Shown in pieces: positions 12,631 through 63,405 of a DNA stretch of 64,000 bases; position 1 is the first letter of the stretch, and each line of letters starts with the position of its first letter. The stretch is taken from contig CM119269.1 in the NCBI GenBank assembly GCA_051294375.1, forward strand, positions 21,313,665 through 21,377,664, written 5' to 3'. Source of the stretch: Paraspadella gotoi (Eukaryota > Animalia > Chaetognatha). A program made the translations under genes and the position numbers. The notes below the pieces were generated by a model, which saw nothing but the letters and a program-made list of their open reading frames with translations, had not been told where the DNA came from and did no database searches.

Positions 12631-15068
12631 ACGACAACGATAACAGACGGCAGTGAGGAATCGGAAACTCACGAGTAACCGATGGTGTCGACCAAGGTGG
12701 ACAGATGCCGCAGCCCGCTGTCGTCGCAGTGATACAGCATTCGCTCGTCCTCCGGCACGAGGTCGACGTCGTGGAAGATGAAGCAGCGGATGTCGGGGCG
12801 CACCTCGCGGACGAAACGGAACCCTACGTTGTAGAGTTTTCCTGAATTGATTGATATACTGATTTAAATTGAAGTTTAAATCGATTTTTATACTAAATTG
12901 TGATTAGTATGCTGGCCTCGACTCGACTCGAGCTATGGAACAAAAAATGAGATTCTTTTTCATGCTCTTTCTTTGCACACTGTGGTTGAGTAAAGAGTAA
13001 TATAAATATTTACATGAAGGCAACTGGAATTTATGTTCATCTAAAAGTTCCTTTCCTTTCGACTGATATCGTCCATTACCTTTGTTGAATAGCTTATGCT
13101 TTTCTCCCCCTTGCTCCACAACAAAGATTTGATAATCAAGCTTTTGTCTTTGAAGTAAAGGATGCAGTATTTTTAACAGATAAAAGAGGTGAAATTCTCG
13201 ATCCCTGAAAAAAAATGAAATAAAATTTAATTATACAACATTTTATTTATTGGATAGCAAAAATTATAATCGTGTGTCACCGCACTATAAAATTGTGTTT
13301 ATTTAAACTTTATGTTGCGACGGCATGAAAAAATAACCTGAAACTGATGATGATGGCGACGGATTGTTTGGCCAAGCAATCATCTGGCCTCCAAGCTCCG
13401 CCCTTGATTACTCCTTGCAAGCTCAAGCTAAAAGAAATAGTTGAAGATCATAATTCATCAATATAAACCCTTATTTTCATCTTGTTACAATGTTACATTA
13501 TTCACTTTTAAGATTTCTTTAGTGGGCGAAATACAATTTAGTATATACTACAATATTTATTAGTTGAATAAAATATTACTCACGTGATATTTTTATCGAA
13601 TTTCGTCGCATTTGATGAGCTTCTCTTGATGTGGTCTTGCCAGGCGGCGAAAGTAGGGAATCCATCACGTCGCCAAAGAAGACCTTCAAATATTTGGTTT
13701 TCATTTAAAACTTATTTTTTTGACGGCTGAACTTGTAGTCGGGCATTGCCTAGGTTCACCCCGCCTATAAACATGACACTTACAGTTGTGACCCCGTGGC
13801 TCATTGAGTAAAGCCATCAGCTCATGACCACTAGGTACCGGGTTTAATCCCAACCCGGTACCTACCCTGTGGGAAGAGTGAGGACGGCCGTAAGCCGCCT
13901 TGGGGGTGTGGCAAACCCTCAAGCCTGGTTCCAAGCCCAGAACCCGTTCCATGTCTGCTAGAGGGGGTTATAGAAGTTACGGATAGTCATCTTCTGCCCA
14001 CTTAGCGCCTTATCCACAAACTACATGAACTTGGAGAATCCAAGAGCAACTGCTGTAATTAAAGCTTTTTGCATAACATGTTATATTTTTACGCGCCATT
14101 CCTTCACAAAATGAGGATGAAGAATGATGACTTTTGACATTTGTCCCTACACTTTTTCTGACAGCAATCCCCTTGAATATACGTATTATTGTTTTTTCGA
14201 TTTTTTTTTTGCTCTTAATTCTGTCTGCCACAGAAGATAATATGAAAATATTGTGGAGAATATACTGCCACAATACACATCGAAATATTTCACAAATGTG
14301 GTTTTGCTTTTACACAGATGCCCTCATTAAGAGACATTGAATTGTTATTACACTAAGCGTGTAATGATGTTAAAACAACATTGTACTTATATTAAGGTTA
14401 AAATTTACTTTTAACTGTTTTAGCCAAATACTTTTTTCTCAGAAATACTTACCCAGATCTCCGTTCGGCGCGCAGGGCTCCAGTTTTGAGCCCCTGAAGA
14501 GAACGCGTTTAAAATGATCTCTGAGAGTTTCGTTGAACGAAAAGTCGAAGCCTTGGATCGAGAGGTCGATAAATGACGAGGAGTTTGATCCGGTGTGGTT
14601 GAAGCCAATGGGCGTGGCAGCGGAGAAAGATTTGGCGTCGACAACTACGGATATAAACCCATCTTTTGTTTTCATATTTGAAACGAATCCAAATCCCAAC
14701 TCTGATAATCACGATAATGAATCTTACCCGGAATTGAGAATTTGCCATTTATCTTTCCCTCGACGGAGGGCGTGACCTTGGCGGGTTTGGGAAGTTCGAA
14801 CTGACCCGAGAGAAACGAGTCGACAGACTGATAGGCGATCTGCGGGACTCTCATCCCGAGAGGCTTTGATTTCTTCCGTTTATCAGTGGTGAACGACAGT
14901 GGGCCTGCGTTTAAAAAGACCAAAAGCACAAGTTAATGAAAAAAAACTTTACCTACAGCAAAGATTTGAGAAAAATTACAAATTAAATTACAAATAATTC
15001 TTACCAGATATAAAAATTATAAAAACGATGACTGTGACACCTTTATAAAAAAAGGATCTGGCCAACAT
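10762..15068 (-). CDS. Glycosyltransferase family 7 (beta-1,4-galactosyltransferase / beta-1,4-N-acetylgalactosaminyltransferase-like), multi-exon type II membrane protein
   Basis: GT-AG exons in consistent phase: 15068-15005 (MLARSFFYKGVTVIVFIIFIS signal anchor), 14904-14728, 14644-14453 (LEPCAPNGDL), 13683-13584, 13427-13338 (GGAWRPDDCLAKQSVAIIISFR), 13204-13080 (DREFHL..LHPLLQRQKLDYQIFVVEQ..FNKG), 12841-12673 (LYNVGF..CFIFHDVDLVPED), 12357-12221 (VGGV..NGFSNLYWGWGGEDDDF), 11956-11824 (RYTMLSH), 11163-10964 (EGLN), 10907-10762 (low-complexity tail, TGA). DVD, WGWGGEDDD and MxxH are GT7 hallmarks. 5'-most and last exons are less certain. Confidence 0.93.
11301..11343 (-). ncRNA. Minimal type I hammerhead ribozyme (Penelope-like pLTR type)
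   Basis: Sense GCA-CTGATGA-AGGCTT-GAATGA-AAGCC-GAAAC-TT-GTA-TGC; in a GT7 intron, same strand as the gene. Confidence 0.75.
13734..14018 (+). mobile_element. Solo-LTR-like element, family C (tRNA-like head + permuted twister)
   Basis: AACT|TGTAG...TCCACA|AACT (4-bp TSD at 13730-33 and 14019-22); 5' hairpin; A-box-like TGGCTCATTGAG and B-box-like GGTTTAATCC; lies in a GT7 intron, antisense. Confidence 0.8.
13868..13953 (+). ncRNA. Twister ribozyme, circularly permuted (P5-type), family C
   Basis: GA-GGA(T1)-CGGCCG(P1)-U^AA-GCC-GC(T2)-C-TTGGGGGT/ACCCTCAA(P3)-G-CTGG(P4)-U-TCC(T1)-AA-GC(T2)-CCAG(P4'). Predicted cut 13891/13892. Confidence 0.78.
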
Positions 15069-15883
15069 TTTTGTAGGCACCGCACACTGAAAAATGAAGA
15101 AAAAATTATCTATTATGAGGCTAAATATTTTAAATAATCCGGATAAAACTTCGACTTTAAAAAAATTTATAAAAAAGTTGAATGAAAAAATCGTAAATCT
15201 ATTAAATGCACGTAAAAAAAAAGAAGAAAAATTACTGAGTTGGAATAATTAAGTCATGTTGGTTTTTGAGAAGTTAGGTTTGATTTGGAATGCACCGCGT
15301 TGGTAAGCTTTCGTTTTTGGTCGATGTTTGTGGACAAAGAGAAGCCAACAGGATTCGAGATGTAATTTCCGACGAGATGCAGAGACCGGCTTTTCTCGTC
15401 ATTCTTGCATGCGGAGAATAATAGGTAATAGATAATTACGAGATTCCAAGATCTGATTCATCGATTTCGGTCGATGGTTAAACCGCATTATGTTACAGGA
15501 CGCATATTTAAAAACAGTTTTGACTTTTCAATGTAATATTCAGAAATGAATTTTATAATTGAACACCGGCCTCGTTTTATTTTTCAACACGAAACGAGCA
15601 AAAATATTCAGTAAAAATAAAGGAGGAAATTTCTAAGGAGTCAAAGGTCGTGAAATAACACAAACGTTTGTTTTGACAAATGTGACTGAAATGAAAAGAC
15701 GACTGTGAAGAAGAAGATGAATAGAAACCTTGAAAACCGCAAAGACAAACGGAAAAATTACAACAATTCTCAGAATTTTATGAGGAAATTTGAAATTTTG
15801 AGGTTATTCATATTATAAAGTAATTTTGAAAACCCGACAATTTCAGAATAATCTGGATAGAATCTTTCTCTCTCTCTCTCTCT

Positions 15884-15923
<40 letters not shown>

Positions 15924-16539
15924 TCATAGAAAGAAAGTGAAAGAGAAAAAATTGAAGGACCAAAAGAACCAGAGGAAGAACGCCAGTACGATATGTTTCG
16001 AGCACGGAGCGACTCGGAGTAAACGACAACAACGACGACGAATAGGACAAAAGAACGGCGTTCGTCGTATAAATAGACGCGCGTCCATTTGGTTTTATTG
16101 TCGCCTTGCTCAAATGTGGACGCTTCGCCGACAAGTCGTCGACGTTCCCAAGTTGGCTCAAAGTGTAGAAAAAAGTGGAGAAAAAGTGGACAAAGAGTCG
16201 GTAGAAAAAAATGGGGAGTTATTTCGTTCAAACGGTAGAATTAAAAATGTTGGGGAAAAAAAGTTTAACTTTAGTAGAAATTGGTTGGAGTACGAAGTAA
16301 TTTTGAAGGCGACTTATGATTTTATTATGAATTACTGATTATTTAGCCGTTTAATCAGTATTTCAGAAGTAACAAAAACAGAGTAAAAAGTGAGTAAAGA
16401 AAAATTTTAAATCCGTCAGTGAAATTAAAAATTCATCTTATAGTCTGCGAAAACCGACAGAACCCTAGGAAAAAGGTCGAATATCTACTAAGAATCAGAG
16501 AAAAGTCGCCATTGACACGTAAAAGCTAAAATAGTCAAA

Positions 16540-19544: not shown

Positions 19545-19581
<37 letters not shown>

Positions 19582-26430: not shown

Positions 26431-26667
26431 TGTAGTGGTAGTATTTCATACCCCACTACTCGTCCGAGAATAAGCAGCACCTATGGCGCCGGAGGTAGCA
26501 CAAGCTCCCCCCAACCCAAAGGACTCGGGTTCGCGCCCTGCTGATTCACACAAGTAAAAGCGGGACGGGGCGTCTAACCTACCTGTAGTGTCGGACTACA
26601 GCCCGATCCGAAGTTCGGGACCTTGTGTGCAACGGACGGTAAACTGCTCGCGGCATCGTCTTCCACA
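26431..26667 (+). mobile_element. Solo-LTR-like element, family B (tRNA-like head + permuted twister)
   Basis: CTAT|TGTAGTGG...TTCCACA|CTAT (4-bp TSD); 5' hairpin GTAGTGG/CCACTAC; A box TGGCGCCGGAGG at 26484; B box GGTTCGCGCCC at 26528. Confidence 0.8.
26547..26629 (+). ncRNA. Twister ribozyme, circularly permuted, family B
   Basis: CACACAAG(P5)..GG-GA-CGG(T1)-GGCGTC(P1)-U^AA-CCT-AC(T2)-C-TGTAGT/ACTACA(P3)-G-CCCGA(P4)-U-CCG-AA-GT(T2)-TCGGG..CTTGTGTG. Predicted cut 26575/26576. Confidence 0.8.
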
Positions 26668-29297
26668 CTATAGTGAATACTCAATCCTCTATTAATATAT
26701 TAGGCTAAATAGATTCGTCAGTTATTACAGGAGCTAGTAATAAAGACGACACTATTTTTCTCTTCTTCATTATGCAATGAGAAATGAGGAAACCAACCAC
26801 TGACCAAGCAAAATATGACAAAATTGTATTTGCATGTTGTAGTTTTAGAAACATATTCCTTTAAAATATATTTGTAAATATAAATATTTAAAAGCAAAAC
26901 AAGAAAAATTTCTTTAAAATATGTAAGTTTAAATGATATCAATTTTAATAATTATTATTAAAAGCAAAATAAAAACAATTTAGCATATTTTTTCGAGTCT
27001 AGAGTCTAGACTAATCACCAAATCGGTGGTGGGTGGGATGTTGGCGCGATTTAAAATCAGGCAGTGTGTAGGAGATAGGCGGACAGAGGAAGGAGCAGGG
27101 CGTTAACCTGGAGGTCTTTTTGAAAAATCAGGCAGTGTGTAGGATAAGGCGTAGTGAAAGTTACATACGAAAATTCTAAATGTCAATTATGAACAACATA
27201 CCATCAGTAAACATTAATTTGTAAAAAAAAAAAATTATGTTCTTCAATTTCGCAGTAGGCTATATTTATATATAGTACTATCCTTATAAAATCAAAAAAA
27301 TTAAAAATAAGCTTTTTTTAATTTTGATTGCATATTTGAATTCCTCGACAAAAGTTGAAAAAAGTAAATATAAGTCATTTTTAAAAATTCTTTCATTAAG
27401 TGAGTTAAAAATTTAAAAATTTAAAATTTAAAAAACTAAAGCAGATCCGACTAAAAACCTCAAAACAAAAAAACTTCTAGCGCTGCCTTTATAATTCATT
27501 TAGTCAGTCCGTCAGTACCACCCCAAAAGCTTGTCAGAATGACACTGAGATAATGTTAGAACATGTGTGAAATATTATGCCTCGCCTCGCCTCGCCAACG
27601 ACAACGATGAAGACAACGACGACGACGACGACGACTACAACGTCGTGATATCGTGACTCATACGCTTCTTATTTGGGAGACGCGTTGCGAGCGCTTTATA
27701 AATCTTTTTTGATTAGTCAGTCGGCCAGGGAATTTTTCTGTTTTTTTTCCCCTTTTTTTCTTTTTTTCCTTTTGGTTTTTTTTTTTTTTTGCTCTTTCTA
27801 TTTCTTTCTTTTTATCTTTTTATTCTCTCCTCTTATCTTCTTCTCTCTTATCCCTAACCATTAGGCCGGAACAGGTTAAAATTAAAAAAAAAAATTTTAA
27901 TAGATTCTGATAGAGCTTTAAAAGTTAGATAAAGGTTATTAATATAACTCTTTTTAAATTTTCATCAATACAATAAAAAAAATTTTAAAACCATAAATTT
28001 CAGTCAATGATGATGATGATTATTTTTTTTAAGGTTTAACCAATATACATTGTGACAATTTTACAAGCGCCGGTAAAAAAAAGCTGTCATTTGCAAACCA
28101 GTGGTTATTTCATTGATTTTAAAAATTAGTTGAGTAGAAAATGTTAAAGTGATTTATGTGTTCAAATTTTATATTGATCAGTTAAGATATGCCTTGACAG
28201 TAAGTGGAGAAAGTTGGCTTGAAAAAATCGGGTTTTATTTTCCAACTCACTTTTTTTAGATTCTATTCAATTTTTTCTCTTACTTTTCGACAGTAATAGT
28301 GTCGGTCATCAAAGTTAATAAATAAATTTAAATAAATAATATTATATATGCAATCTTCTTAAAGCAAAGAGGCTCGGTATGGCGGAAACATCGATTAGCC
28401 AATCCCGATGTCTCGAACACCAGAACTCAATAAAAGTCGGAGGAAAGAAGCGAAAACCAAGATATCCGGATTCAAGTGGAGTAAAAATCGGAAAATTACA
28501 TATTTAGTAACGTGAAAGACCAAAGCGGGAGATTCGGTTCTGATCGACGCAAATTGGTGGGGAAGATGACGTTTCACGTTTATGATTCTCAGAATCTCCC
28601 TCCCCCCCTGTACGATGTCTACGGGGGGGGGCGATTGTGAGGTTTTGTAGAGAAATATCCATGATCAGTATAATATTCAACGCATCTGATTTGTATTTGT
28701 TGATTTATTGCGAGATTTTTATTGAGCAGAGAGAGAGAGAGAAGAGGAGAGAGGAGAGAGATGGAGAGAGAGAGAGAGAGGAGTGAGAGATACGAGATAG
28801 AGTGAGATAGAGAGGAGAGAGAGATTTTATGCCATTCAAATTACTCAAATGTTCAACACAGTGATTTACATTCGAATGATCCTAGTAATTCTTCCCGATA
28901 TCCGCAGGCACGAAACTCCTATTGTCTTTTTTGTCGCCACAAAAAAGGAGGCGATAATAGTTATGAGGGTAAAGAAGAGGAAGAGTGTAGGTGAGAAGGA
29001 AGCGGAATGGAGTAAGGGAGGGAGTGGAAGCGCTGCAGAAAGACGTCATTTTTTTTCTAGCGGCAGGATCTCACACGCGTTCATCTTTTGCCTTCGTCTT
29101 ACTTGAGACACCCTGACACACAAAGAATTCAATTGAACAGGATTCAAGGTGGCTTTTCAACTCGTTTTTTTCCCGCATGGGGTTCATTTCGCTTCTAGGA
29201 AACTATCCCTGAGAGAAAAAAAGTGTTGTTATTGTTGTTGTTTAACCACATAAACAGGCTGGGTGGGCCGAATACTTTAAACTGCATGTCACTTGCG

Positions 29298-40270: not shown

Positions 40271-40307
40271 TACATGTTTCGACTCTTATGTTTCGAGTCT
40301 TCATCAG
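40271..40307 (-). ncRNA. Minimal type I hammerhead
   Basis: Sense CTGATGA-AGACTC-GAAACATAA-GAGTC-GAAAC-AT-GTA; upstream (TC)n and CTCAATTCTTTGTT block shared with the 58801 copy. Confidence 0.8.
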
Positions 40308-40361
40308 CAAGTGAAAATAACAAAGTCAAAATATCTCAAACATCAGTTTTGGAGAGTGAGA

Positions 40362-40395
<34 letters not shown>

Positions 40396-41010
40396 AAGAG
40401 AGAGGGAGAGAGAAAGAGAGAAAGAGAGAAAAAGAAAGAGTATCTAACAAAGAATTGAGTAAAGGATAGTGGTCAGATGTGAGGACAGGTGAAAGTAAGG
40501 ACAGGGAAGAAGAGAGTAAGTAAATGTGAATTTGAAAAATTGGTGAAAGGAGAGAAAGAGAGAAACAAATCAATACATTAGACAATGTACTGATATACTG
40601 CAATATGTAATTAGAATATAGTATTATATATATTAATTTGCATATTTTGCATATAGCAGTAAATCATAATGAGAAAGAAATTAAAATATGATAATTGCAA
40701 AGATAAAGATAAAGATTTTAAAGATAAGAAGCCATATTTAAATTTTAAACTTACTAAGACAGCATACTTTTATAAAAATCCATTGTAATTTTTAGTTATT
40801 TTTATTTAAGAAAAAAGCGTGACGCCAATGATGACGACGACGCCGACGCCAACGACGTCATAAAGAAGCTGAACCGAACCAAAATCTAGCCAAGACGGGC
40901 TTAAGCCCGTCTTGCGAGATAAAAATGGTATTTCTAGTAATTGGACCTTTTTTAAAACCGACACAGAGCATTCGATAAGGTAACAAGTCAAACCAAACTC
41001 TATACATTAA

Positions 41011-41590
41011 GGCGTAGTGAAAGTTACATACAAAAATTCTAAACGTCATTTATGAACAACATACCATCAATGAAAATTAATTTGGTAAAAAAAATAATTT
41101 TATGTTTCTTAATTTTTGCAGTAGGCTATATTTATATATAGTACTATCCTTATAAAATGGAAAAAATTCAAAATAGGCTTTTCTTTATTTTGATTGCAGA
41201 TTTGAATTCCTCGTCAAAAGTTGATAAAAGTAAATATAAATCATTTTTAAAAATTCTTTCATTAAGTGGGTTAAAAATTAAAAAAACTATATTTAATATA
41301 TAAAAAATTAATTTTCAGCCCTAAATATAGCTTTTTTTAATTTTTGACCCACTTAATGAAGGAAGTTTTCAAAAAGAGTTATATTTCTTTCTATCAACTT
41401 TTTATGACGAATCCAAATCTGCAAAAAAAAATCTTAGAAAAAACTGTTTTTAAATTTTAACATTTATTGGATTAGTACTAATATAAATATGGCCTACTGC
41501 GTAAATTGTAAAATTTGTTATAATTTTTTTTATTACATAAATGTTCATTAGTATAATGTTGTTCGTTTCTCACTTTTAGAATTTTACACC
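41011..41590. mobile_element. Non-autonomous DNA transposon, Kolobok-like (fragments also at 27148-27420, 38810-39105, 42875-43025)
   Basis: TTAA|GGCGTAGT start; other copies end ACTACGCC|TTAG; several dispersed homologous copies. Confidence 0.5.
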
Positions 41591-41603
41591 TTACTATACA
41601 TCC

Positions 41604-41868
41604 TTGATTTGATTTTGATTTTGATTTGATTTTGATTTGATTTTGATTTGATTTTGATTCAATTTTGATTTGATTTTGATTTGATTTTGATTTGATTTTG
41701 ATTTGATTTTGATTTGATTTTGATTTGATTTTGATTTGATTTTGATTTGGTTTTGATTTTGATTTGATTTTGATTTGATTTTGATTTTGATTTGATTTTG
41801 ATTTGATTTTGATTTGGTTTTGGTTTTGATTTTGATTTGATTTTGATTTTGATTCGATTTTGATTTTA
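41604..41868 (+). repeat. (GATTT/GATTTT)n simple repeat (mirror at 52757-53020)
   Basis: Seen directly in the sequence. Confidence 0.95.
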
Positions 41869-41880
41869 TGATTCATTCAT

Positions 41881-47800: not shown

Positions 47801-47819
47801 AGGGCTACCACGAGAGTAA
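41881..47819 (-). CDS. C-type lectin domain protein (EPN/WDD, mannose-type motif), 5' end cut off at the palindrome centre
   Basis: In-phase GT-AG exons 47819-47726 (..TLVVALLHS.. partial signal peptide), 47392-47301, 47038-46907, 46580-46446 (KPWIDAYTICRSIGSTLVVIDS), 42134-41892/41881 (VWIGIN..WAPGEPNNADGQQECIQM..WWDDANCQIEKKFICQ). Confidence 0.88.
43891..44073 (+). mobile_element. Short TG...CA element with tRNA-like segment and structured GC core (copies at ~44949-45130 and mirror ~50580-50763)
   Basis: Termini TGTATTGA/TCAGTACA form an 8-bp imperfect inverted repeat; CTTTGAACC..GGTCCCGGGCTCTACCCC resembles a tRNA anticodon/T arm; no matching TSD. Confidence 0.4.
44183..44353 (+). mobile_element. 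hAT-like terminus with GGCTCC subterminal repeats (copy at ~45238)
   Basis: CAGGGATGTGGAGCCG start followed by tandem GGCTCCA/GGCTCCG; only one end seen. Confidence 0.5.
47456..47672 (-). mobile_element. Solo-LTR-like element, family A copy (twister core 47491-47564)
   Basis: Sense TATGGTGGACTAAAATCCACCA...CTGTCTCTTCA; flanks ATAA/ATAT (1-mismatch TSD); in a lectin intron, same strand as the gene. Mirror copy at 48078-48294. Confidence 0.75.
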
Positions 47820-47929
47820 ACTTTAAAAGAAGAGAATGTTTTTGAGAGATGTAAATTACACATCAATTCGTTTGATTAAAGAAAGACACTTTCGTTCTAA
47901 TGTAATTTACATTACGCACATAGGTGGTG

Positions 47930-50900
47930 TTACTCTCGTGGTAGCCCTATTGCATTTCTATACAGAACTTGGAGTTGGCTGATCGCTTGAGTCAAATTAT
48001 TCAAAATCAGTCCCACTCAAATTTGTGAGTACAAACATAGATGTTTAATTGTTTATTTATTGTTATATTTATGATATTATGGTGGACTAAAATCCACCAA
48101 GCGTTCCTCCATCGGCCATTGGTCGCTGAGGCAAGTCATTCGCCTCCCAACCCAAAGGTCCGGGTTCTAGCCAGGTGGCCGCCTCGCAGTTAAGAGGGAC
48201 GGGGCGCTTAACCCGCCTGTAACATTGTGTTACCGCCTGATCCGAAGCTCAGGGACTTGCTATATTTAATGGTTCTATAATTACTGTCTCTTCATTATTT
48301 AATTTATGACAAAGATGTAGATTGAAAAAAAAAAAACTTGTTTCATTTTTGCTCAGACAAGAATTTTACGCTGAAAATATGTTGGAAGCTGAAAGTTTGA
48401 GCAAAATCCAGAAAACAAGACATCTCTAGAAGATAGAAAAAAGATTGGTAAGCGGTAGAGAATAGATAATAATCAAAAAAGTTAAAATTAATTAATTTTA
48501 CAGTATTTTATTCTTTATGAAAATAAACAATTTTTTTTTAATAGTAATTTTAAATCCGAGGTAATCATTAGCCGGAACAGGTTGAAAACTAGAAGTTCTC
48601 TCAAATAAATAATGGTTAAGTACTGTTAGAGAATATGAAAATGAAAATAATTTTTAAAATTAATCTTATTATTATAATCCAAAAGTATTATTTATTTGTA
48701 TTTTTTAGAGATAATAAAAGAATGCCATGCAAACAACTTCACGAAGGTCAGGCAGGTTTTTTAATGGAGAACAGCGACAAACAATGTTGACAATTTTGCG
48801 TCCGTAAATGACATATTTATCATCAATGGGGGAAATCTTTCAGGTGAACTTTTTTTTTTCATCCTAATTTTGATTTTAGATTTAAGTTTGTAAAATAAAA
48901 AAATCTGATACCACAACTTTTGACTTGTACTTGTAGTACTGATCTAAAACAGATATTTTGTTAAAAAATCAATTTAATTAAAAAAATATTTTTTTTATCA
49001 AGCAACTTATTCAAGTTTTTTGCTAAACGCCTAACGTTCTGTCTCAGTTAGTAATTTTTATTTTTTTGACAAATTTTTTTTTTTTTAATCGCGGTCTTTA
49101 ATTTCTTCTTTCAGTATAGTAGATTCATATAATTTAGCTCCCTTATCATCTTAACCTCTCTTGTCAGTTGAATATTTTTATTATGAAGATGAGAAACCCT
49201 GGATCGACGCTTACACAATTTGTCGTTCGATTGGATCAACATTGGTCGTCATCGACAGTACGCAGCAAGAATCAACGTGGAGGACTTTATAAGGAATCAC
49301 AGTGAGATTGCTTGGCTTGTATTTTTCAAAAACACCCAATTTCTGCTTTAGGGTTTAAAATTGTACCAAGGTTTATGCGTAAATTGGATTTAGGGGGAGT
49401 TAGTTATGGATTGGGTCAAAAATTTGGGTTTGTGGTGAAAGCTTAATGTTAGGTAGATCAGTAGGTAGGTACAGAGTTTCTCAAGCGTATGTAACTTTAC
49501 AAATGTAGGAGGAGAGCGAAACTGTTGCAGATCACCGAGGACTTTCGCGGATCCACAAAGACTCTTTTGAACTCATTAGAGACTTCTTATCAATAAACGT
49601 TTCCGTTCTCATTATTATGATTATTGATTGTTCATTTATTCGTTTCTATTTCAGGCGAGAGGCATAGAGTTGAATGGGAGGCCAGGGTTAGAGGTAGGGG
49701 GAGAGGCTTACTTTTTGATGCATCAAAGCGGTTAGGGTTAGGGTTAAGGCACAGAGATATATGGAAAGCTCGGGCCCAGTAAAGTTAGAGAAAAGAAGGC
49801 TCGGGTTAGGGAAAAGCCCATGGTTGATGCATCGAAGGCAGTTAGGGTTGGGTTGAGACACAGAGATGTTATGGAGCCAGGGCTTGGGTTAGGATTAAGG
49901 GAGAGGAAAGAAGTTGAAAAAGAGGCCCGGGTAAGGGTTAATGTTAGGAAAGCTACAGTTGGCGCATAAAAGGTGGTTAGGGTTTGAGGCATGGAAATGT
50001 ATGGGAGGCCCTCGGCCTGGGTTAGGTTGGGAAAGGCATGGAGATGTACGGCAGACTTGGGTAGCCTTTAGTTTTGAGGGAAGATCCCGCAGGTGATGTA
50101 TTTATCCCCATGTCTTAACTTCAGCCACGAGCTTTTCCTTTAACTCCCGCCTTTCATTATATTTTTGATTTTTTTTTTCATTAAAATAAAATCGTTGTCA
50201 AAATTAAACTCAAACTGTTTCTAATCGTCCCAAACAACGAAAAGAAAGAAAGAATATATTATTAATATTTTAATTTCTAAAATTTTAAATTATATTATAG
50301 TAATGGAGCCGGAGTTGGAGCCGGAGCCGAGTTGAAATTTTGCTGGAGCCGGAGCTGGAGCCGAAAAAAAATTTTGCTTGGAGCCGGAAAGCTGGAGCCG
50401 GAAAAAATTTGGCCTGGAGCTGGAAGCGGAGCTTGGAGCCGAGACAAAATTAGGTCGGCTCCACATCCCTGCTTGAATGCTAATAAAATGTAAAATAATA
50501 TAGTTGATTTAAAAAATAAATATATATAAAACCTTAAGAACCTTTGCATCTAACGAGTACAGTAAATGCATTTTTATAATGTACTGATTCACTGTATTCA
50601 TTGTAAAGTGACTCTACGCTTGATCGGCGGTAGGGCGTGCTTCCAGTGGTTTTACCGGCCGGTCACCTCTTTGCAAGGGGGGTAGGAGCCCGGGACCCGG
50701 TTCAAAGATAGCGCTGATAGAAGACACTGTCGTATCCAGCGGTAGTGATATTACGTCAATACAAGGGCCTTTCTCCCTGTTGCCCTTTAGGGAAAAGAAA
50801 TTACATAAGGATAAAAGTTGTCGCATTTTTTATGCTTTAATTAAGAAATGTGGGATTATGTTAGGAATTAAGGTTAGGACTTTTTTCTCATCTTCATCAG

Positions 50901-52742
50901 GTTTAAGTAATAAGGATTTAGGTTAGGGAGTAAGAGCATTTTCCTGGTACAAATTTATTAGACATTAGGATTAGTATCTTTTTTCAATTCAAGAATCATA
51001 CGGATTTCAAATGGGAGTGAAATAACAAGAGTTTGTTATAATTCTTAACTGACTGAATGTGATTAAAATTTGTTTATTTCATTAGTTTGAAAAGTCCCTG
51101 ACGTTTATGTTCCTATAAAGCAAATTGATAATACATTATATCATAGCAAACTGTGCGCTTGCCTTCCAGCAACTTTTTTTTTCAATATTTTTTTCCCTTT
51201 TATTTAATAATTCAATTTTTATACTCATTGTGAACAAAATTGAGACAAATAATTTTAATTTCCGGCTCTTGGGAGCATGCAAACATTTATTATTAATCAA
51301 TTTCAAGGATTAAAAAAGCAACAGGCTTTTTCCATATCATTCTTTTGCAATTTTTTTAATGCTGACATTTTTATTTTCTATGTTTTAACAGAAAAATTAG
51401 AAAATTAAAATAGTGTCATTGTGGTTGTGAAAAAGTTTTTGACAATCAGATTGTTCAGACACATACTCCAATATTTATATTTTTAAGATGAACTATTGTT
51501 TCAAACATTTAATTTTTTTGTCGTGAAAATATATCTTATAACAGAAGGTCCTTTCAAATATATTTTTTTTTAAAATTTTGACGAAGCCATTGATGAGCAC
51601 TAAGGCGTAGTAAAATTTCTAAATTGAATATTTTTGGATTTTATAAGGATAGTATATATAAATAATATTATATTATATATATATTAATTAATATATATAT
51701 ATATATATAAAATATAGCCTACTGCAAAAAATTAAAAAACATAAAAATTATTTTTAAGCAATAATAAGCTAATCCGATAAAATCACAGTAATATTTTCTG
51801 ACTTTTAATTTGTGATCTTAACAGATCATAACAAAATCATAAAAAGACTTAATAAATCTATTAAAAATCTATAAATCAATTGATGTATCTAATTTAGTCA
51901 ACTTGCATAATGTATTATTTGGTCATTCTGGCATAATTTGGTCAACTGGCATAAATTGGTCAACTGATATAATTTGTGTCAACTGGCAAAATTTGTCAAC
52001 TTGCATAATTTAGTCAATAAATCAATCAATCGATCAGAGAGAGAAAGATAGAGGGAAACTTAAAAAAAAACTGTTATCCACTCCATCGAAACTTTTTATC
52101 CAGCTCAATCACACACTTTCCTACCTACACACAAAATTTTATTCCAATCTATCCACCCAATCACGAGTAATTGGAGTTAATGAAAAGGTTGGAACAAGAC
52201 GACGGACATAATTTATCATAATTCGATATTCTGATATGATAAAAATTATTTTACCGACAAGATTTGGGGGCTGTGATGATAGAGTCGGGAATCTGCAATA
52301 AGCAGATCCGACTAAAAAAGTGTCAGCGATTTTTTTACCTGGGTCCAAAATCTGAAGTTGCTATAACAAATAAGTTAGCCACAGTATTTGATCATTTCAT
52401 TTCCACCCATTTGAAATCCGTGTAGATATTACATGTGAGGCGTCAGCCCCGTCAGGATTATGGCTTTTTGTTTATATTTTAAATCTCACAGCCATTAGCG
52501 ACCAAGTTTGGATCGGCATTAATCGCACGATGCCTCACGATTCGGAAGTCTATCCCTGGAAATACGTCAACGGAGCTCAAGTCAACGAAACATGGGCCAA
52601 TTCAACTGGGCTCCCGGAGAACCAACAACGCCGACGGCCAACAGGAATGCATCCAGATGAACTATATGACTCGGGGTTGGGGATGACGCCAATTGTCAGA
52701 TAGAAAAGAAGTTCATTTGTCAAAAAAACAGGTGAGGAGTGA
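47930..52742 (+). pseudogene. Mirror copy of the C-type lectin gene in the right palindrome arm, with many 1-bp indels (probably a sequencing artefact rather than a real pseudogene)
   Basis: Reverse complement of the 41881-47819 exons, with frameshifting single-base losses (e.g. ~49261, ~52600, ~52680). Confidence 0.6.
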
Positions 52743-55700
52743 ATGAATGAATCATTAAATCAAAATCGAATCAAAATCAAATCAAAATCAAAACCAAACC
52801 AAAATCAAAATCAAAAAAATCAAAATCAAATCAAAATCAAATCAAAATCAAATCAAAATCAAATCAAAATCAAAACCAAATCAAAATCAAATCAAAATCA
52901 AATCAAAATCAAATCAAAATCAAATCAAAATCAAATCAAAATCAAATCAAAATCAAATCAAAATTGATCAAAATCAAATCAAAATCAAATCAAAATCAAA
53001 TCAAAATCAAAATCAAATCAGGATGTATTAGTAAGGTGTAAAATTCTAAAAGTGAGAAACGAACAACATTATACTAATGAACATTTATGTAATAAAAAAA
53101 ATTTATAACAAATTTTACAATTTACGCAGTAGGCCATATTTATATTAGTACTATCCAATAAATGTTAAAATTTAAAAAACAGTTTTTCTAAGAATTTTTT
53201 TTTGCAGATTTGGATTCGTCATAAAAAGTTGATAGAAAGAAATATAACTCTTTTTGAAAACTTCCTTCATTAAGTGGGTCAAAAAATTAAAAAAAGCTAT
53301 ATTTAGGGCTGAAAATTAATTTTTAATATATTAAATATTAGTTTTTTGTAATTTTAACCCACTTAATGAAAGATTTTTAAAAATGATTTAATATTTACTT
53401 TTATCAACTTTGACGAGGAATTCAATCTGCAATCAAATAAAGAAAAGGCCCTATTTTGAATTTTCCATTTTATTTAAGGATAGTACTATATAAAATATAG
53501 CCATACTGCAAAAATTAAGAAAACATAAAAAAATTAATTTTTTTTTTACCAAATTAAAAAATTTTCATTTGATGGTAATGTTGTTCATAAAATGACCTTG
53601 CGTTTAGAATTTTGTATGTAACTCTTCACACGCCTAATGTATAGAAGTTTGGTTTGACTTGTGTTACCTTATCGAATCTCTGTGTCGTTTTTAAAAAAAG
53701 GTCCAATTACTAGAAATACCATTTTTTATCTCGCAAACTACCCGTCTTGGCTAGATTTTGGTTCGGTTCAGCTTCTTTTATGACGTCGTTGGCGTCGGCG
53801 TCGATCGATCATACTTGGCGTCACGCTTTTTTCTTAAATAAAAATAACTAAAAATTACAATGGATTTTTATAAAAGTTATGCTGTCTTAGTAAGTTTAAA
53901 ATTTAAAATATGGCTTCTTATCTTTAAAATCTTTATCTTTTATCTTTGCAATTATTCATATTTAATTTCTTTCTCATTATGATTTACTGCCTATATGCAA
54001 AATATGCAAATTAATATATATAATACTATATTCTAATTAACATTTGCAAATCAGTTGTATATTCAGTACATTGTCTAATGTATTTGATTTGTTTCTCTCT
54101 TTCTCTCCTTTCACCAATTTTTCAAAATTCACATTTACTACTCTCTTCTTTCCCTTGTCCTTACTTTCACCTTGTCCTCACATCCTGACCACTATCCTTT
54201 ACTCAAATTCTTTGATTAGATACTCTTTTCTTTTTCTCTTCTTTCTCTCTTTTCTCCTCCTCCTCTCTTCTCTTCTCTTCTCTCTCTCTTTCTCTCTCTC
54301 TCATCCCAAAGAACTGATTGTTTGAGAATATATTTTGACTTTGTTATTTTTCACTTGCTGAATGAAGACTGAAACATAAGAGTCCGAAATAAAACATAAT
54401 AAACAATTACGATAAAATGGTTGTTCAAGCGATCTTTTTGTTAACTTTCTAAAGATGAGAAAGCTATAGTCTAAATTTTAATAAAAATAAAAATATACAT
54501 ATTTTATTAACTTATATAGAAAAATTATAACAATTTCCAATTGTAAACATTGTTAACATTTTTTGTCTTTCTTTACAAAAAAAGTATTATGATTTTACTG
54601 CAATAATGCAAAAATTAGAATATTGTACTTGCTGAAATATGCCAAATTAAAGTTATATAACAATTGTTTGATAAATTATTACAATGATGAACTCATTGCG
54701 TCAATGAATACTATCATCGCATTAATGAAGTGACTTATTAAACAGATCAAGACATGATTATCATCGCATCAATCTTTGCGTTTATCATCGCATCAATTAT
54801 TTTGGTTATTCAATTGCAATCAACATAATTAATTTACTATAAATCAATCAATTAACTATTTACAATCAATCAATTAACTATTTCATCTTCAATTATTATG
54901 TTATTGCATCAATCATTTTTATTTTTCTGGATTTTTTAATTTCTTTTTGATAGTACTCACGTCTGGCGAAGATTCACTATACTTTTAAGATTTTTAATTA
55001 AATTTAGATTATATTTATAATATATATATATATACACATGTAATCTTGTTTCTTTGCAAGAAATCTACTTGATTGAAAAAGTGAACCTACCCAATGCGAA
55101 GGAAAAAAATTTTTTGTGCTCAAATAAAAAGGTTTAAGGATTAGGAATTGAAATGGGTTGCTTTATGAAAAAAATTCCCCATTTCTTTGTTAAAAAGTTA
55201 ACAGATTTTTCAAAATTGCTTTGTTTTTAAAAACTTAGAGCTTGGCAGAATCATACATTGCACTAACTCCTTATTAAAATTATTAAATTCAATATAATAT
55301 AAAACTGTTAAAATTATTGAAAGCCTGGTTTTTTTCTCGTTTTTTCTTTCTCTTTCTCGTCGGCCAAAGCAAAATTATGATTCGTTGTCACCTTTTAAAA
55401 AAAAAATACGGGAGGCAGAAGAAAAGATAGGGAGATGCTAGTTAAGGCGGGCCAAAATTGAGCACTTTTTATAACTTCTAGTTTCTCTATTAAAAAAATT
55501 TCAGTTTCCTAAGACTAGATTCAGCATAGCCATAAAAATATTTGTCTACACAAAGTATAATTCTTTTTTTAAATATTTTTATGATAAGTTGGTCAAATAG
55601 AAAATACCATAAAATTGTCATCATCATTTTTTTTTTGCGGATTTTTTTAAGTTTTTTTAAATTTACTAAGAAAACGTATAAGAATTTTAAATGCTGTAAT

Positions 55701-57624: not shown

Positions 57625-60600
57625 TCATGCTTGGGGAAACAAATTATTCATGATTGGTGAAATGAAATCTACCAATTTATAAATAAATTTAAATTTAAAA
57701 TAAATTCTAATCTTCATAATAATATATATTCTGAGCTCACCTTCGTTTAGTGCGTCATGAAGTCCTGAATTAAAAAATAAAAACAAGTTTGTGCAAACAA
57801 TGTCGGATCTGCCACGATATTAAGCGGTAAATAGCTTAAATAAAAAATGAATTAAATAAAAAATAAAAAAAAAATAATAAGTACAAATAATTTTTTATCT
57901 ATTATTATTTTCCACTTGCATCATTTTTTAAACTTGCATAATTATTTCAACTCGCATGATTTTTTCAAATTGCATCATTTTTTCAACTTTCATATTTTTT
58001 TCAACTTGCATATTTTTTTAAACTTGCATACTTTTTTAAACTTGCATACTTTTTTAAACTTGCATAATTTTTTCAACTTACATACTTTTTTAACTTGCAT
58101 ACTTTTTTCAACTTGCATCATTTTGTAAAACTTCCATCTTTCTTTAACTTGCATCTTTTTTTTTATCTAGCTCCATTTTTACAACTTGCATAACTTTTCC
58201 AATTTGCATAATTTTTTTCAACTTGTGAAGAGACAGTAATTATTGTTATATGTTAATGATAGAACCGTTCAATATAAGCAGTCCCTGAGCTTCGGATCAG
58301 GCTGTAACACCGTGTTACAGGCGGGTTAAGCGCCCCGTCCCTCTTAACTGCTAGGCGGCCACCGGGTTAGAACCCCGGACCTTTGGGTTGGGAGGCGAAT
58401 GATTTGCCTTCGGCACCAATGGCCACTGATGAACGGTTGGTGGATTTTAGTCCACCATAAAATTAATATTGTTTTATACTATATAAGTTACAAAAATTTC
58501 ATACGGGTTCTTAAAAGAGTTGTAATATAATAATTGTTGTTTTAACGAATTCTCAAATACAATAGTTAACGTCTAATTCTAAAAAAAACCGTTTTAAACA
58601 GTTAGTCGGACGGGACGACCAAGAAAGATCCCAAGAAAGTCTTAACCTAGCCTTTTTTTTCAAGAGCGCCCCATTTTAATTAAATTAAATTAGTTTTTAG
58701 ATTAAAAACTTCATGGTAATTATCCTTTCTTGTTTCATTGTTTGAGAGATTAACAAAGTTTGATTTTATTTTTGCAACGAATTTTATTGTTACAAGAGCA
58801 GACATGTTTCGGCTCACAGTACGAGCCTTCATCAGCGCATATGAGTTGTCAAGTTGATACAAGTTTTTAGTTAAAGAAAGAGAGAGAGAGAGAGAGAGAG
58901 GTTAAAGGTTTCCAACAAAGAATTGAGTAAGGACAGTGATCAGTGGTGAGGACAGATATTTAGAAGTGGCTAGTATGAATAAGTTTTGGAAAGAAGTGAA
59001 AATTGGTGAGAGAGAGAGAGAGATTAAAAACTTAAGTTAAAGATTAAAATTTAAAAATTATGTTATAGAATAGGGTAAAGATTAGGGTTAGGGATTAGGC
59101 TTGTGATTAAGATTAAGGATAAGAGATTAGAATTTAGTTAGGAGTTAGGGTTAGATCTTAATGGTTAGGATTTAAGGTCAGGGATGGGAATTAGGTTAGA
59201 ATTAATTAAGGAATAAAGTTTAAGATCAGGTTCTGGGTTTAAAAATATATTACAGTTAAATATTAAAGTTTAAATTAAGTTTAGGTATAGAGGAACACAA
59301 ATTGGGCGCTTTCGAAAAAAAGAGCCTTTCACTCTCTTACTGTCATGTCTGCAGAGAATGCTCTTGCTGATTTCGCAATTAGCGTCGTCCCAAGTCCCTT
59401 CGTCGGTCTCCCCTTCAGTGAAGATCTGGACGCAATCCTGGACTTTGTCGTTGTTGGGTTCATTTGGACGCCACTGCGCCACTAGGGGTGACCAAACGGT
59501 TCCATCTGACCAGATCCATCGATCATCCTCGGTCATGTTTGCGTTTTCCGGATAGTCTGTAAATATAAATCCAAAAGAAAACAAAAAAGTTTGAGCAAAC
59601 AATGTCGGATCTGCCTATGATAATTAGGCGGTAATAAGCTAATCCGATGTCATTTGAAAGCCAGAAAAAATTACCGATGATAAATCACGATAATTTTTTC
59701 TGACTTTCAATTTAAGGTCATAACAAATGGTAAAATAACAAATCATAACAGACTCTTAATAAATATATAAAAATATCTATAATATCAATTAATTTATCAA
59801 TCATTACCAGTAGCTGCGCCAATACCAACTTGCATAATTTGGTCAACTGGCATAATTTGGTCAACTGGCATAATTTAGTCAACTTGTATAATTTGGTCAA
59901 CTTGATTAATTGGTCAACTGTCATACGTAATTTGGTCAACTGACATAATTTGGTCACCTGGTATAATTTGGTTCACTGGCATAATTTGGTCACGTCAAAA
60001 TTCCATCGAAACTTTATATCCAGCTTTATCACATACTTTCCTACCCACACACAAAATTTTATTCCAATCTATTCATCCAATCACGAGTACTTGGGGTTAA
60101 ATGCTAAAGGGGGATGGACGGATGGACGGACAGACGGACGGACATCGTTTTTTTGCTTAATTTATCATAATTCGATGTTCTGACATGATTTAAGAGAGTG
60201 CCCGACAACCTTTTGGGGTGGGACCGAGGGACCGACAAAGTGGATTATTATAAAGCAAACCCAATATNNNNNNNNNNTGGTCAACTGTCATACATAATTT
60301 GGTCAACTGACATAATTTAGTCACCTGGTATAATTTGGTTCACTGGCATAATTTGGTCACGTCAAGATTCCATCGAAACTTTATATCCAGCTTTATCACA
60401 TACTTTCCTACCCACACACAAAATTTTATTCCAATCTATTCTTCCAATCACGAGTACTTAAGAGAGTGCCCGACAACCTTTTGGGGTGGGACCGAGGNNN
60501 NNNNNNNNNNNNNNNNNNNNNNNNNNNNNNNNNNNNNNNNNNNNNNNNNNNNNNNNNNNNNNNNNNNNNNNNNNNNNNNNNNNNNNNNNNNNNNNNNNNN

Positions 60601-62703
60601 NNNNNNNNNNNNNNNNNNNNNNNNNNNNNNNNNNNNNNNNNNNNNNNNNNNNNNNNNNNNNNNNNNNNNNNNNNNNNNNNNNNNNNNNNNNNNNNNNNNN
60701 NNNNNNNNNNNNNNNNNNNNNNNNNNNNNNNNNNNNNNNNNNNNNNNNNNNNNNNNNNNNNNNNNNNNNNNNNNNNNNNNNCAATTAACTGTTTTACTAA
60801 ACAGTCTGATAATACTTAGATTGAACTGAGCTTCGGATCAGGCTGTAACACCGTGTTACAGGCGNNNNNNNNNNNNNNNNNNNNNNNNNTCTGGAATAAT
60901 AACTTACGATTGATACTAGCAGCTTCGCGATCAGGCGTGTAACACGTGCCTTACAGGCGGGTTAAGCGCGCCCCGTCCCTCTTAATCTGCTAGGCGACCA
61001 CCAGCGGCCTCAAAAACCTCGGGTACCTTTGGGTTGGGACGGCCGAATGACTTGCGCTCGCTGATGAGTATGCGTTGGCTGGATTTAGTGCGCACTCATA
61101 CTTGCTTTTTAAAATATTTTGACAATGATTTACTTGATTTTTAGCTTCATAGGTTTTTCCAGCGTTAACTTGTCCTTTTAATTTTATAGTTTGCGCCGCG
61201 TAGTTACTCGTCACGGAGCAACCTCTTATAAGTCACTTTTTGGTCAGTCGGTCTAGTCCATCCCACTTTACATATAACTCTGCCTATGAATTTGTTGTCA
61301 TTTGTTAAAAATCAGAATATAAGCATACCTACTAGTCGCGCGCCTTTTGCCTTTTTAAAAAAAAATCTTAGTAGAAAAAAAAGTATTTAGATGATTTTTT
61401 ACATAAAGGAAATTTGTTTTTTATTATTATTCGTTGATAACAATATAATTAAAACTACCTTTGTTTTTTTCTACTATCAAAACTAATCTAAAATAGAAAG
61501 GTTTAATACATCATGGGTCTACAAAAACAAATCTCATATAACTATAAAGAAATAAATGACATGATAAGAGCACAACAGCCTAGGAATAATCGTTCTGTTC
61601 CTTAAATTTTTAATCTTTTTTTTTTCTTTTTAGAACTTTTTGCAAATTTAAGCCCGATTGAAATTTCACTTAACCATATTGTTTACAAATTACCTGACAA
61701 ATTCCTCAGTTTTACTGGCGGTAAGTCCACATCAGGTTCCTATTAAAGAGAATTTTAACATAATCACTTTTTATGCTATTGTAGGGGTACATATTATATT
61801 ATATGCGATAAAATAAAATACAATGCTAGATAATTGAATATTGTGACTGAAATAAACCAAGAGAATGGGAAACCGGCCATAAAAAGGAGAGGGAGAGACG
61901 AAGAATCAGTACCCAGAGCCTTCCCTTGCGTACCATCCAAATTATAATGGGGGTCAACCTTTGTGGCGACAAAACACATTATTGCCACATCCCCACTCCT
62001 GCGAAAAGTACCAAAGGAGACTTTCTTCTTGTTTGTGGAAAGGGCGTGACTGTCTGGAGCTGGAGGCATGTGACATGGAGGCGCCTTCTGGCCCGAAGAA
62101 AAAAAGGCGGAGCCTGTCGCTGCGCAAACAGCGACATAATATCGTGGAGGCGGAGCTGACTTTGAAGACTCTGAAATGGAAGTCAGCTGGGCTGGCCGCG
62201 GAGGTGGGGGAACCCGCCAAGGAAGTCGTGGTGCCGGCCGCCTAGTTGCAGGGACTGGCCGGGATGGCGGAAACGGCCAAGATGGCGAGACCTGCCAAGA
62301 GGCTTTACTTAATGAGCCACCGGGTCACGACTGAAGGTGTCCTGTTTATAGGCGGGGTGAACTTATGCAATGCCCGACTACATGTATCCCATCGCTGATA
62401 AAACTAATGTATTTATTACTGGCAAAGCCTTTGACAATTCTTAGCAGACCAGTGAATAAGGCATTATCGTTTCCCACTTTGGTCATAAGAATGCCGTCGA
62501 CAAAGTGTACATTTGCCACAAAAAGTTCAGTCATTTTTTCCATTTTTGATTTGTTTCAGAAGGATTTCCACGTATTCTCGTCGGGCTCATCAGTTATGTA
62601 GGGGTACATAATTATATTTTATGGGCGATAAACAGATACAAGATGTGTACAAGTAGAAATCAAATATTGAGACTGAAACCAGAGAATGGGGCACCGGCTA
62701 ATA

Positions 62704-62746
<43 letters not shown>

Positions 62747-63405
62747 TCAGAAGCCTGTTTCCCTTGCGACCACCAAACATAGTGGCCACACCATTTATCA
62801 TAGGATAACATTTGATGATTTGTAAACTATTTAGCTATTTGTTTATAAACGTTATTTTCAATATACCATTTTCTTTCAAGAAACTCAACTAAAATCCGTT
62901 TGTAATTGTAATTGGCTTAAACTTTTAAAACTACGCACAAAATTTTTAATCGATCAATCGATAAATCAGATTCATAAATTTAAAAAAAGTTACTAGTGAA
63001 GAGACAGTAATTATTGTTATATGTTAGTGACAGAACCGTTCAATATAAGCAGTCCCTGAGCTTCGGATCAGGCGGTAATACCGTGTTACAGGCGGATTAA
63101 GCGCCCCGTCCCTCTTAACTGCTAGGCGGCCACCGGGCTAGAACCCCGGACATTTGGGTTAGGAGGCGAATGACTTGCTTCCAGCACCAATGGCCGCTAA
63201 TGAACGGTTGGTGGATTTTAGTCCACCATACTAGATATAAATCAATGAATCCTACAATCAATCAAATGTTGTTTTAGAAACAACATTATCGATATTAATT
63301 AGTTCATAGTTTAAATTTATAAATTACCAACAAAAGGCGGCACCTTTCCCTCTTCTAGAAATTGTTCATACTTTGACTTTTTGATCGCTCCAATCCATGT
63401 TCCAC
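57625..63405 (-). CDS. Second C-type lectin domain gene (partial; upstream exons lie beyond 63405)
   Basis: Exon 63405-63328 (GTWIGAIKK..PPFV) joins in phase 1 to exon 59556-59341 (DYPEN..WIWSDGT..WRPNEPNNDKVQDCVQI..WDDANCEISKSILC). A putative 24-nt micro-exon 57764-57741 and stop at 57627-57625 are less certain. Confidence 0.8.
57915..58225 (+). repeat. ~18-bp AACTTGCATACTTTTTT minisatellite
   Basis: Tandem copies seen directly. Confidence 0.85.
58226..58459 (-). mobile_element. Solo-LTR-like element, family A copy
   Basis: 234 bp with the same ends as the 62997 copy; A box TGGTGCCGAAGG, B box GGTTCTAACCC; flanking 4-mers do not match here. Confidence 0.75.
58278..58351 (-). ncRNA. Twister ribozyme, circularly permuted, family A
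   Basis: Sense GCAGT(P5)..GG-GA-CGG-GGCGCT(P1)-U^AA-CCC-GC-C-TGTAAC/GTTACA-G-CCTGA-U-CCG-AA-GC-TCAGG..ACTGC. Predicted cut 58328/58327. Confidence 0.8.
58801..58835 (-). ncRNA. Minimal type I hammerhead
   Basis: Sense CTGATGA-AGGCTC-GTACTGT-GAGCC-GAAAC-AT-GTC; in a lectin intron, same strand as the gene. Confidence 0.82.
59578..60250 (+). mobile_element. Helentron/DINE-1-like non-autonomous element (related pieces at 42310-42870, 57780-57840, 60278-60497)
   Basis: Subterminal GTCGGATCTGC repeat (hairpin form at ~42315), internal GCATAATTTGGTCAACT minisatellite and (GGAC)n tract. Confidence 0.55.
60800..61100 (-). mobile_element. Garbled or partial family A copies in low-quality sequence around N gaps
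   Basis: GAGCTTCGGATCAGGCTGTAACACCGTGTTACAGGCG at ~60829, and a noisy near-full copy at 60920-61100. Confidence 0.55.
61780..62793 (+). mobile_element. Degenerate small two-LTR (TRIM-like) element
   Basis: Diverged direct repeats starting TGTAGGGGTACATA at 61780 and 62597; PBS-like TGGCGAC at 61964; GC-rich internal remnant; no clear TSD or PPT. Confidence 0.45.
62997..63230 (-). mobile_element. Solo-LTR-like element, family A copy with perfect TSD (twister core 63049-63122)
   Basis: CTAG|TGAAGAGACAG...CCACCATA|CTAG; 234 bp; P3 has mismatches in this copy. Confidence 0.8.

Follow-up and report, generated by a model that had tools for sequence, protein, structure and literature searches.

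The DNA analyzed here, referred to below as the window, is a stretch of 64,000 nucleotides (nt) from the chaetognath Paraspadella gotoi (contig CM119269.1, positions 21,313,665 to 21,377,664). It carries three families of repeats of 215–285 bases, A, B, and C, which we consider candidate solo long terminal repeats (LTRs) that contain a tRNA-like promoter and a predicted twister ribozyme. The three families share one layout: a TG or TA start, a hairpin, an A box, a B box, a type-P5 twister core, a tail, and a CA end. This order, and the elements at five loci, had been reported in a preliminary description made from the sequence alone, and both were found again, with family A on the minus strand. 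Families C and B have the TG...CA termini of Helenus-type LTRs, and family A has TA...CA. All full copies have 40–60 nt 5′ of the A box. The three families had also been described as sharing little overall identity. This holds for family C, which is more distant from A and B than these are from each other, but not for A and B, which are 68% alike across ∼140 nt in a comparison within the window (E 1e-7 to 1e-6). Given this relationship, the two do not count as independent witnesses.

The family C copy C1 (13734–14018, plus strand, TG...CA) is a putative solo LTR flanked by the target-site duplication (TSD) AACT at 13730–13733 and 14019–14022. Its tRNA-like internal promoter spans 13797–13851, with the A box starting at 13797 and the B box at 13841–13851. 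The twister core, in type-P5 order, lies at 13869–13947 (GA at 13880; P4/L4 at 13924–13941), with a palindromic P1 at 13885–13890 and a predicted cut between 13891 and 13892. A 3′ tail hairpin was predicted by folding at 13956–14008, and its stability was no better than that of shuffled sequences (z −0.4). Another candidate in the tail of family C, a second twister of type P3, was rejected: UAA is missing, and its fold is a simple hairpin. The single family B copy listed, B1 (26431–26667, plus strand, TG...CA), has the TSD CTAT, a 5′ hairpin at 26432–26459 (z −4.2), an A box starting at 26484, and a B box at 26528–26538. Its twister core at 26547–26629 is closed by an 8-bp P5, with GA at 26564, P1 at 26569–26574, and the predicted cut between 26575 and 26576.

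Three copies of family A lie on the minus strand: A1 (47456–47672, TA...CA; predicted cut between 47541 and 47540), A2 (58226–58459; A box from 58418, B box from 58374, predicted cut between 58328 and 58327), and A3 (62997–63230, TA...CA, TSD CTAG; predicted cut between 63099 and 63098). The 5′ hairpin of A2 had a z-score of −3.7 in comparison with shuffles. Four copies were found in addition to those previously described. A4 (48078–48294, plus strand) is an inverted duplicate of A1 together with its flanks and, therefore, is not an independent insertion. D (60826–61055, minus strand) represents one or more noisy copies of family A, interrupted by an N gap. C2 (62301–62382, minus strand) consists of the 5′ 82 nt of family C, with 90% identity to C1. 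The last is a decayed C-like 3′ half with P4/L4, tail, and a CACA end (approximately 63521–63627, minus strand; local score of 52 vs a maximum of 41 in 500 shuffles). A1 and A4 form the arms of a ∼900-bp inverted duplication (47415–48335) that includes the flanks and shows indel noise; it is either a fold-back or an assembly artefact.

The exact 4-bp TSDs AACT, CTAT, and CTAG previously noted are present at C1, B1, and A3, that is, at three of the five independent full copies. When TSD lengths from 2 to 11 were compared, length 4 alone fit. The chance of an exact TSD is 0.0076 per copy, which gives a probability of 4e-6 for at least three in five. The flanks of A1 match at three of four TSD bases and those of A2 at none of four. 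To examine ends genome wide for families A and C, contigs from public sequencing runs of the same organism were aligned to 62250–63300 and 13690–14060. Runs X1 and X2 come from one sample and X5 from a different sample. In X1, 176 contigs left family A at 62997 and 121 at 63230, with a flank agreement of 0.42; 100 left family C at 13734 and 86 at 14018, with a flank agreement of ∼0.4. Agreement this low indicates that the flanks are unrelated. The contigs at both ends mostly enter unique DNA, as those of solo elements would. The 5′ end of C2 was likewise sharp in 113 contigs of X1, and the sharp-end pattern of A and C recurred in X5. The flanks of both families are heterogeneous and AT-rich, and 5′ and 3′ contig counts are comparable. 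Majority flank strings were mirrored, with ATAT on both sides of A (X1, X2) and GAT on both sides of C (X1, X5). This mirroring is what a preferred 4-bp target would produce, although AT-richness confounds the mirrored ATAT of family A. Among the listed contigs of A and C, 5′ ends were not markedly depleted and a shared tail was not found. No A-rich or simple-repeat tail was seen in the full copies or in these contigs, which agrees with the earlier account. The signs of an ordinary short interspersed element (SINE), namely 5′ truncation, TSDs of variable length, and tails, were, thus, not found; instead, the TSDs are fixed at 4 bp and the ends of A and C are sharp. The ends are probably integrase products of a parent with two LTRs.

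Summed depth in X1 was 1.0–2.1 million over A3 and 0.3–1.4 million over C1, compared to ∼72–82 on single-locus contigs. This points to an order of 10^4 copies each for families A and C, a crude figure since summed depth is not a copy number and gives only the order of magnitude. High copy number, sharp ends, and a fixed TSD could also be produced by derivatives of a DNA transposon with a 4-bp target duplication, of the miniature inverted-repeat transposable element (MITE) type. Such an origin is very improbable, since the terminal inverted repeat is no longer than 3–4 bases and the layout has a single direction and is preserved as RNA structure.

Another possible explanation is that the elements are SINE-like retroposons, or retroposons dependent on Penelope or Naiad elements, with a tRNA-derived head, a twister tail, incidental TG...CA ends, and no two-LTR parent. 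An internal region was not found, minimal hammerheads of the Penelope type are present in the window, and the eukaryotic twisters published so far are associated with non-LTR elements (PMC8501958), all of which would fit this explanation. Nevertheless, we consider it quite unlikely. The TSDs are fixed at 4 bp, the 5′ and 3′ ends are sharp and similarly supported, and every full copy keeps the 40–60 nt before the A box and has no A-rich or repeat tail. Naiads, in contrast, are heavily 5′-truncated, with tandem or inverted structures, and are described as lacking hammerheads (PMC8557442). In addition, the Perere-3 element starts at its ribozyme cut site (PMC8501958), whereas the predicted cut is central here.

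The tRNA-like A and B boxes of the earlier account were confirmed. They are separated by 44 nt in all three families, which is a tRNA-like spacing. ARAGORN found no tRNA genes. C1 departs from the canonical B box at 13845, but 99% of the family C depth has the canonical letter at this position. The putative LTRs, therefore, appear to contain tRNA-derived A and B boxes as Helenus LTRs do, and we infer that RNA polymerase III (Pol III) uses them. TTTT is absent from the sense strand of all six full copies, as was also stated previously.

The twister core runs in the order P5, 3′ strand of P2, GA and T1 partner, 6 nt, U/AA (the slash marks the cut site), 5′ strand of P2, T2 partner, P3, P4/L4, and P5. 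Since this order opens at P5, the fold is assigned to type P5. P2, P4, and L4 with U/AA, GA, and YNNNAARY were found in all six full copies. A strict descriptor was built from the twister model after the elements had been seen (layout from PMC8501958, Table 1, and PMC5408937). Run over both strands of the window, it gave six matches, all of them within these elements. The same descriptor matched 0, 1, and 0 of 20,000 shuffles of C1, B1, and A2, respectively, and once in 20 shuffles of the whole window. In five aligned copies, 97% of the cells were paired and 11 of 21 pairs showed two-sided changes. The pseudoknots were 100% paired, with two-sided changes in two of three T1 pairs and one of two T2 pairs. 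None of 500 shuffles scored as high, and pairing dropped to 23–52% in slid registers.

The contigs of family C are independent support for the twister fold. The mismatches of C1 in P4 (13941) and P5 (13870) are minority states, and the family majority keeps pairing at both; these two breaks and the one in the B box are private to C1. The commonest variant near the cut, at 13894 (6% of depth, 110 contigs), changes a G-U pair of P2 to A-U. No variant fell on GA, T1, UAA, T2, or L4 among the 40 family C rows listed of 44, and none fell between 63097 and 63122 among the 40 family A rows listed of 87. A permuted twister had been proposed before, and the descriptor and the covariation, pseudoknots included, bear out a type-P5 fold. 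Approximately 94% of the natural twister candidates that were assayed were active, and defects in P1 and P2 were tolerated while those in the pseudoknots were not (PMC11662667). By analogy with these natural candidates, the cores are likely active. We expect with good confidence that cleavage would occur at U/AA, 132–158 nt into each LTR.

What the preliminary description overlooked is the nature of P1, which is a conserved palindrome instead of a hairpin. The distance from T1 to the cut site is just 6 nt, which is too short for a P1 hairpin, and an intramolecular P1 was not found in A, B, or C; a 1-bp hairpin would be unfavorable (+4.1 to +5.6 kcal/mol). The P1 words GGCGCT (A), GGCGTC (B), and CGGCCG (C) are wholly self-complementary, a property of 5.3% of all hexamers. 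Their self-duplexes were calculated at −8.3, −6.3, and −10.7 kcal/mol, respectively. The central pair is C-G in families A and B but G-C in family C, and it is impossible within one strand. The palindrome suggests that the two LTRs of one transcript would pair into hybrid active sites. This would parallel the dimer-cleaving hammerheads, which have a palindromic stem III.

Taking the anatomy as a whole, we favor, with some reserve, the interpretation that A, B, and C are solo LTRs of protein-less, Gypsy-mobilized mini-retrotransposons of the Helenus type, with a self-cutting twister and a circular cycle like that of retrozymes. Everything in this cycle beyond the sequence anatomy is inferred. 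Within the 5′ LTR, Pol III appears likely to initiate upstream of the A box and to read through the LTR, since the LTR has no T4. The 6-nt palindrome may then pair the 5′ and 3′ LTR copies so that mainly transcripts with two LTRs would be cut efficiently, a step that we rate just short of evenly balanced. Cutting at both sites would remove the terminal repeat needed for strand transfer, and for this reason we propose that a host ligase circularizes the RNA, which would be copied by Gypsy reverse transcriptase (RT) and integrase; our confidence in this step is also slightly below even. From the circle, tRNA-primed Gypsy RT would rebuild two LTRs, and integrase would make the 4-bp TSD. Solo copies could come from LTR recombination or from short cDNAs.

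A simpler use of the ribozyme is conceivable in the same Helenus-type LTRs. The twister could merely trim a linear Pol III transcript at its 3′ end, as a substitute for a terminator. Cleavage mainly in the 3′ LTR would leave a ∼90–100-nt repeat, and ordinary strand transfer could proceed without a circle. The anatomy would be identical, and the lack of sense-strand TTTT, where in most Helenus LTRs examined the B box is soon followed by a T run, would fit this use. The two hybrid active sites of a paired-LTR ribozyme could also differ in rate. However, both LTRs would carry the same ribozyme, the sequence favors neither cut, and plant LTR ribozymes yield unit-length circles (PMC4918200, PMC9695139). 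We, therefore, regard 3′ trimming as rather unlikely.

Several observations weigh against the self-cutting, circular interpretation. With regard to the parent element, no two-LTR copy and no primer binding site (PBS) were seen in the window or among the contig rows listed. The proposal that these are solo LTRs of an LTR element stands on the integrase-type ends, the 4-bp TSDs, and the sharpness of the ends. There are two weak hints of a polypurine tract (PPT). Contigs that leave family A at 63231 (38 in X1, 41 in X2) have a majority purine run just 5′ of the element, but X1 and X2 are a single sample and the run is absent from the corresponding group of 32 contigs in X5. In X1, a single contig runs from a C fragment across a G run into a new C start, but the G run could be a piece of C's own tail. 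Furthermore, A2 has no TSD, family A starts with TA instead of TG, and the boxes of families A and B are imperfect, each with one departure from the tRNA B-box consensus.

With regard to the ribozyme, P2 has two uninterrupted pairs and no more. Rfam, searched with the whole window and the three elements, returned no family at gathering score. Its only twister match was Twister-P5 on C1 (13904–13940), at 16.5 bits vs a gathering score of 37.6, and B1 and A2 had none, so the check by Rfam models that had been recommended failed to support the twister. The covariation comes from five sequences of three related families, and the structure was read from the same set. In the minimum-energy monomer folds of A and C, the P1/T1 strand pairs with the T2 region instead, and the fold z-scores of the three cores were weak (0.13, −2.2, and −1.3). 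In one C subfamily, the majority P1 string was AGGCCT in X1 and AGGCCC in X5, and the end pair of the latter is mismatched. In cofolding, a method that is blind to pseudoknots, two of four copies (B1 and A1) formed the P1 duplex, whereas C1 and A2 did not. P1 is also dispensable for twister cleavage in vitro (PMC11662667, PMC5408937) and, thus, a palindrome need not mean obligate dimers.

The subthreshold Rfam score, the two-pair P2, the P1 without a hairpin, and the competing monomer folds could all be explained if the twister is an inherited passenger that is now inactive, and the repeats are solo LTRs of an element that is either Helenus-like or an autonomous Gypsy. We assign this explanation a low probability. 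Across the three diverged families, the catalytic and pseudoknot positions have been retained, with compensatory changes, and they are retained within family C as well. The high proportion of active natural candidates and their tolerance of P1 and P2 defects (PMC11662667) likewise argue against it.

Other features of the window were recorded. The minus strand has exons belonging to a glycosyl transferase group 7 gene and to C-type lectin genes (12672–12863, 41884–42390, and 59273–59614); domain matches were obtained to Glyco_transf_7N in one of the six exons tested and to Lectin_C in two of six. The regions 39441–44564 and 50093–55282 form a 5.3-kb inverted duplication with 92.7% identity that includes a C-type lectin exon. 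Further duplicates flanked by Ns suggest that gaps were filled in an error-prone way. Direct repeats at 61780–61898 and 62597–62717, which start TGTAGGGG, are 73% alike and 817 bp apart, with a GC-richer stretch between them in which C2 is set; they are possibly another LTR-like or tandem element. AT-rich MITE-like repeats of 260–300 bp, whose halves are inverted matches, occur at 27145–27439, 38811–39072, 41008–41586, and 53039–53638. Hammerhead-like motifs of minimal type I, in which stem III is a short palindrome, were seen at 11339 (minus), 23612 (minus) and 23637 (plus), 29298 (plus), 39321 (plus), 40307 (minus), and 58835 (minus), with one pair back to back. We take them to be of the kind known from Penelope-like elements, a label drawn partly from reviews.

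Among known systems, the closest for overall design is Helenus (TRIMp3; Kojima 2024), a group of TRIMs (terminal-repeat retrotransposons in miniature) with tRNA-promoter LTRs and 4-bp TSDs in six animal phyla (PMC10886601). Animal Helenus elements have TRGCY and GGTTC boxes, leave solo LTRs, and are linked to Gypsy (PMC10886601); Pol III transcription was left unvalidated in the describing paper. The elements here share with them the noncoding TG...CA LTR with tRNA-derived boxes, the animal 4-bp TSD, solo LTRs, a length within that of Helenus LTRs (up to 323 bp), and the presence of several families in one genome. In contrast, no ribozyme is described for Helenus, and the word "twister" occurs 0 times in the main text of PMC10886601. 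Most of its LTRs examined have a T run after the B box, whereas TTTT is absent here, and a pair of LTRs with PBS and PPT defines Helenus, whereas the elements here are known as single LTR-like copies. No twister loop motifs in a twister context were found in the Helenus consensus file (four of its nine sequence parts by eye, and the whole file by a motif search that words split across lines may escape). No match to a published Helenus family was found in parts 1, 5, 7, and 9 of the supplement or in a short-motif search of the whole file, with the same caveat. By eye, the C tail shares short hairpin words with the tail of Helenus-2_SyUm, and these are not kept in one C subfamily.

Two wasp families in the same supplement (PMC10886601), Helenus-2_SyJa-LTR and Helenus-2_SyUm-LTR, have by eye a complete type III hammerhead directly 3′ of the B box, with a 7-bp stem I, a 4-bp stem II, and 12-nt loop-loop complementarity. 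Both LTRs lack TTTT while their internal regions have T4 runs, and both families have a PBS and a PPT. The accessible text of the paper makes no mention of a hammerhead in these LTRs, and the design of a promoter followed by a ribozyme may, therefore, sit unrecognized in published Helenus data.

Plant LTR retrozymes (PMC4918200, PMC9695139) are the model for the proposed cycle. They have a ribozyme in each LTR, 4-bp TSDs, Gypsy mobilization, solo LTRs, and a unit-length RNA without an R repeat, which for our elements is a prediction. The elements here likewise combine a 4-bp TSD with a ribozyme embedded in the LTR, the twister fold being predicted. Plant retrozymes differ in their type III hammerheads and 300–400-bp LTRs, and a tRNA-type promoter is not described in the accessible parts of these papers; our hammerhead scan found none inside the elements. 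Animal retrozymes, in contrast, are described as lacking LTR, PBS, and PPT (PMC7761336), and a recent account of them as non-LTR elements has the word "twister" 0 times in its accessible text (bioRxiv 10.64898/2026.07.22.740005).

As ribozymes, the elements resemble the type-P5 twister (RF02684; PMC5408937) in opening at P5 and in having U/AA, GA, P2, P4, L4, T1, T2, and the optional P3 and P5. They differ in the loopless 6-nt palindrome that serves as P1 and in a Rfam score below gathering, and their fold is a prediction. The T-variant twisters of Perere-3 in Schistosoma mansoni (PMC8501958) are also twisters of an animal retroelement with a non-standard P1, but Perere-3 is an autonomous non-LTR RTE element with the ribozyme at its 5′ end in P1-type order and the TSD adjoining the cut site. 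In the dimer-cleaving minimal hammerheads of Penelope-like elements (PMC6765202, PMC7761336), the stem by the cut site is also a short palindrome, for which pairing between tandem repeats has been suggested; these hammerheads belong to another ribozyme class and another retroelement order. Cassandra and Ajax (PMC10886601) share the Pol III promoter in a TRIM LTR. Their promoter, however, is 5S-derived, no ribozyme is described for them in the accessible text, and the TSDs of Ajax are 5 bp. Nine metagenome loci from a pattern scan were considered as relatives; by eye, none of the nine had a P4 stem or the element layout, and they were taken as chance matches.

The claim that these elements are a new kind of system was, therefore, not sustained, since they combine the designs of Helenus (PMC10886601) and of plant retrozymes (PMC4918200). 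The accompanying claim, that no described element has this combination, fared better. A tRNA-promoter LTR and a ribozyme in an LTR are each known already, and what is new is the combination with a twister. We found no report of a twister in an LTR or TRIM, or of an animal LTR retrozyme, in the full-text literature, a coverage from which subscription journals are largely absent. It is doubtful, but would follow from the full cycle, that these are the first animal LTR retrozymes, Pol III driven and Gypsy mobilized with a circular RNA, in which a P1 formed between LTRs is a checkpoint for full length that largely ignores the tens of thousands of solo-LTR transcripts.

In published descriptions, LTR ribozymes with circular RNA have so far been a matter of plants and hammerheads, and a twister in a tRNA-promoter LTR would extend this cycle to animals. 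Twisters would gain a second defined job beyond the 5′ processing of RTE elements, and a twister in the LTR would explain how a Pol III LTR element manages without a terminator. At ∼10^4 copies per family, by the crude estimate above, the elements are maybe a large and unannotated source of ribozyme RNA that Rfam misses. The palindromic P1 would offer an inexpensive and clear-cut test of a dimer-cleaving twister, of which a single literature search showed none in print. If our interpretation is true, these elements and the wasp Helenus hammerheads together would make a tRNA promoter followed by a ribozyme in the LTR a recurrent design with interchangeable ribozymes.

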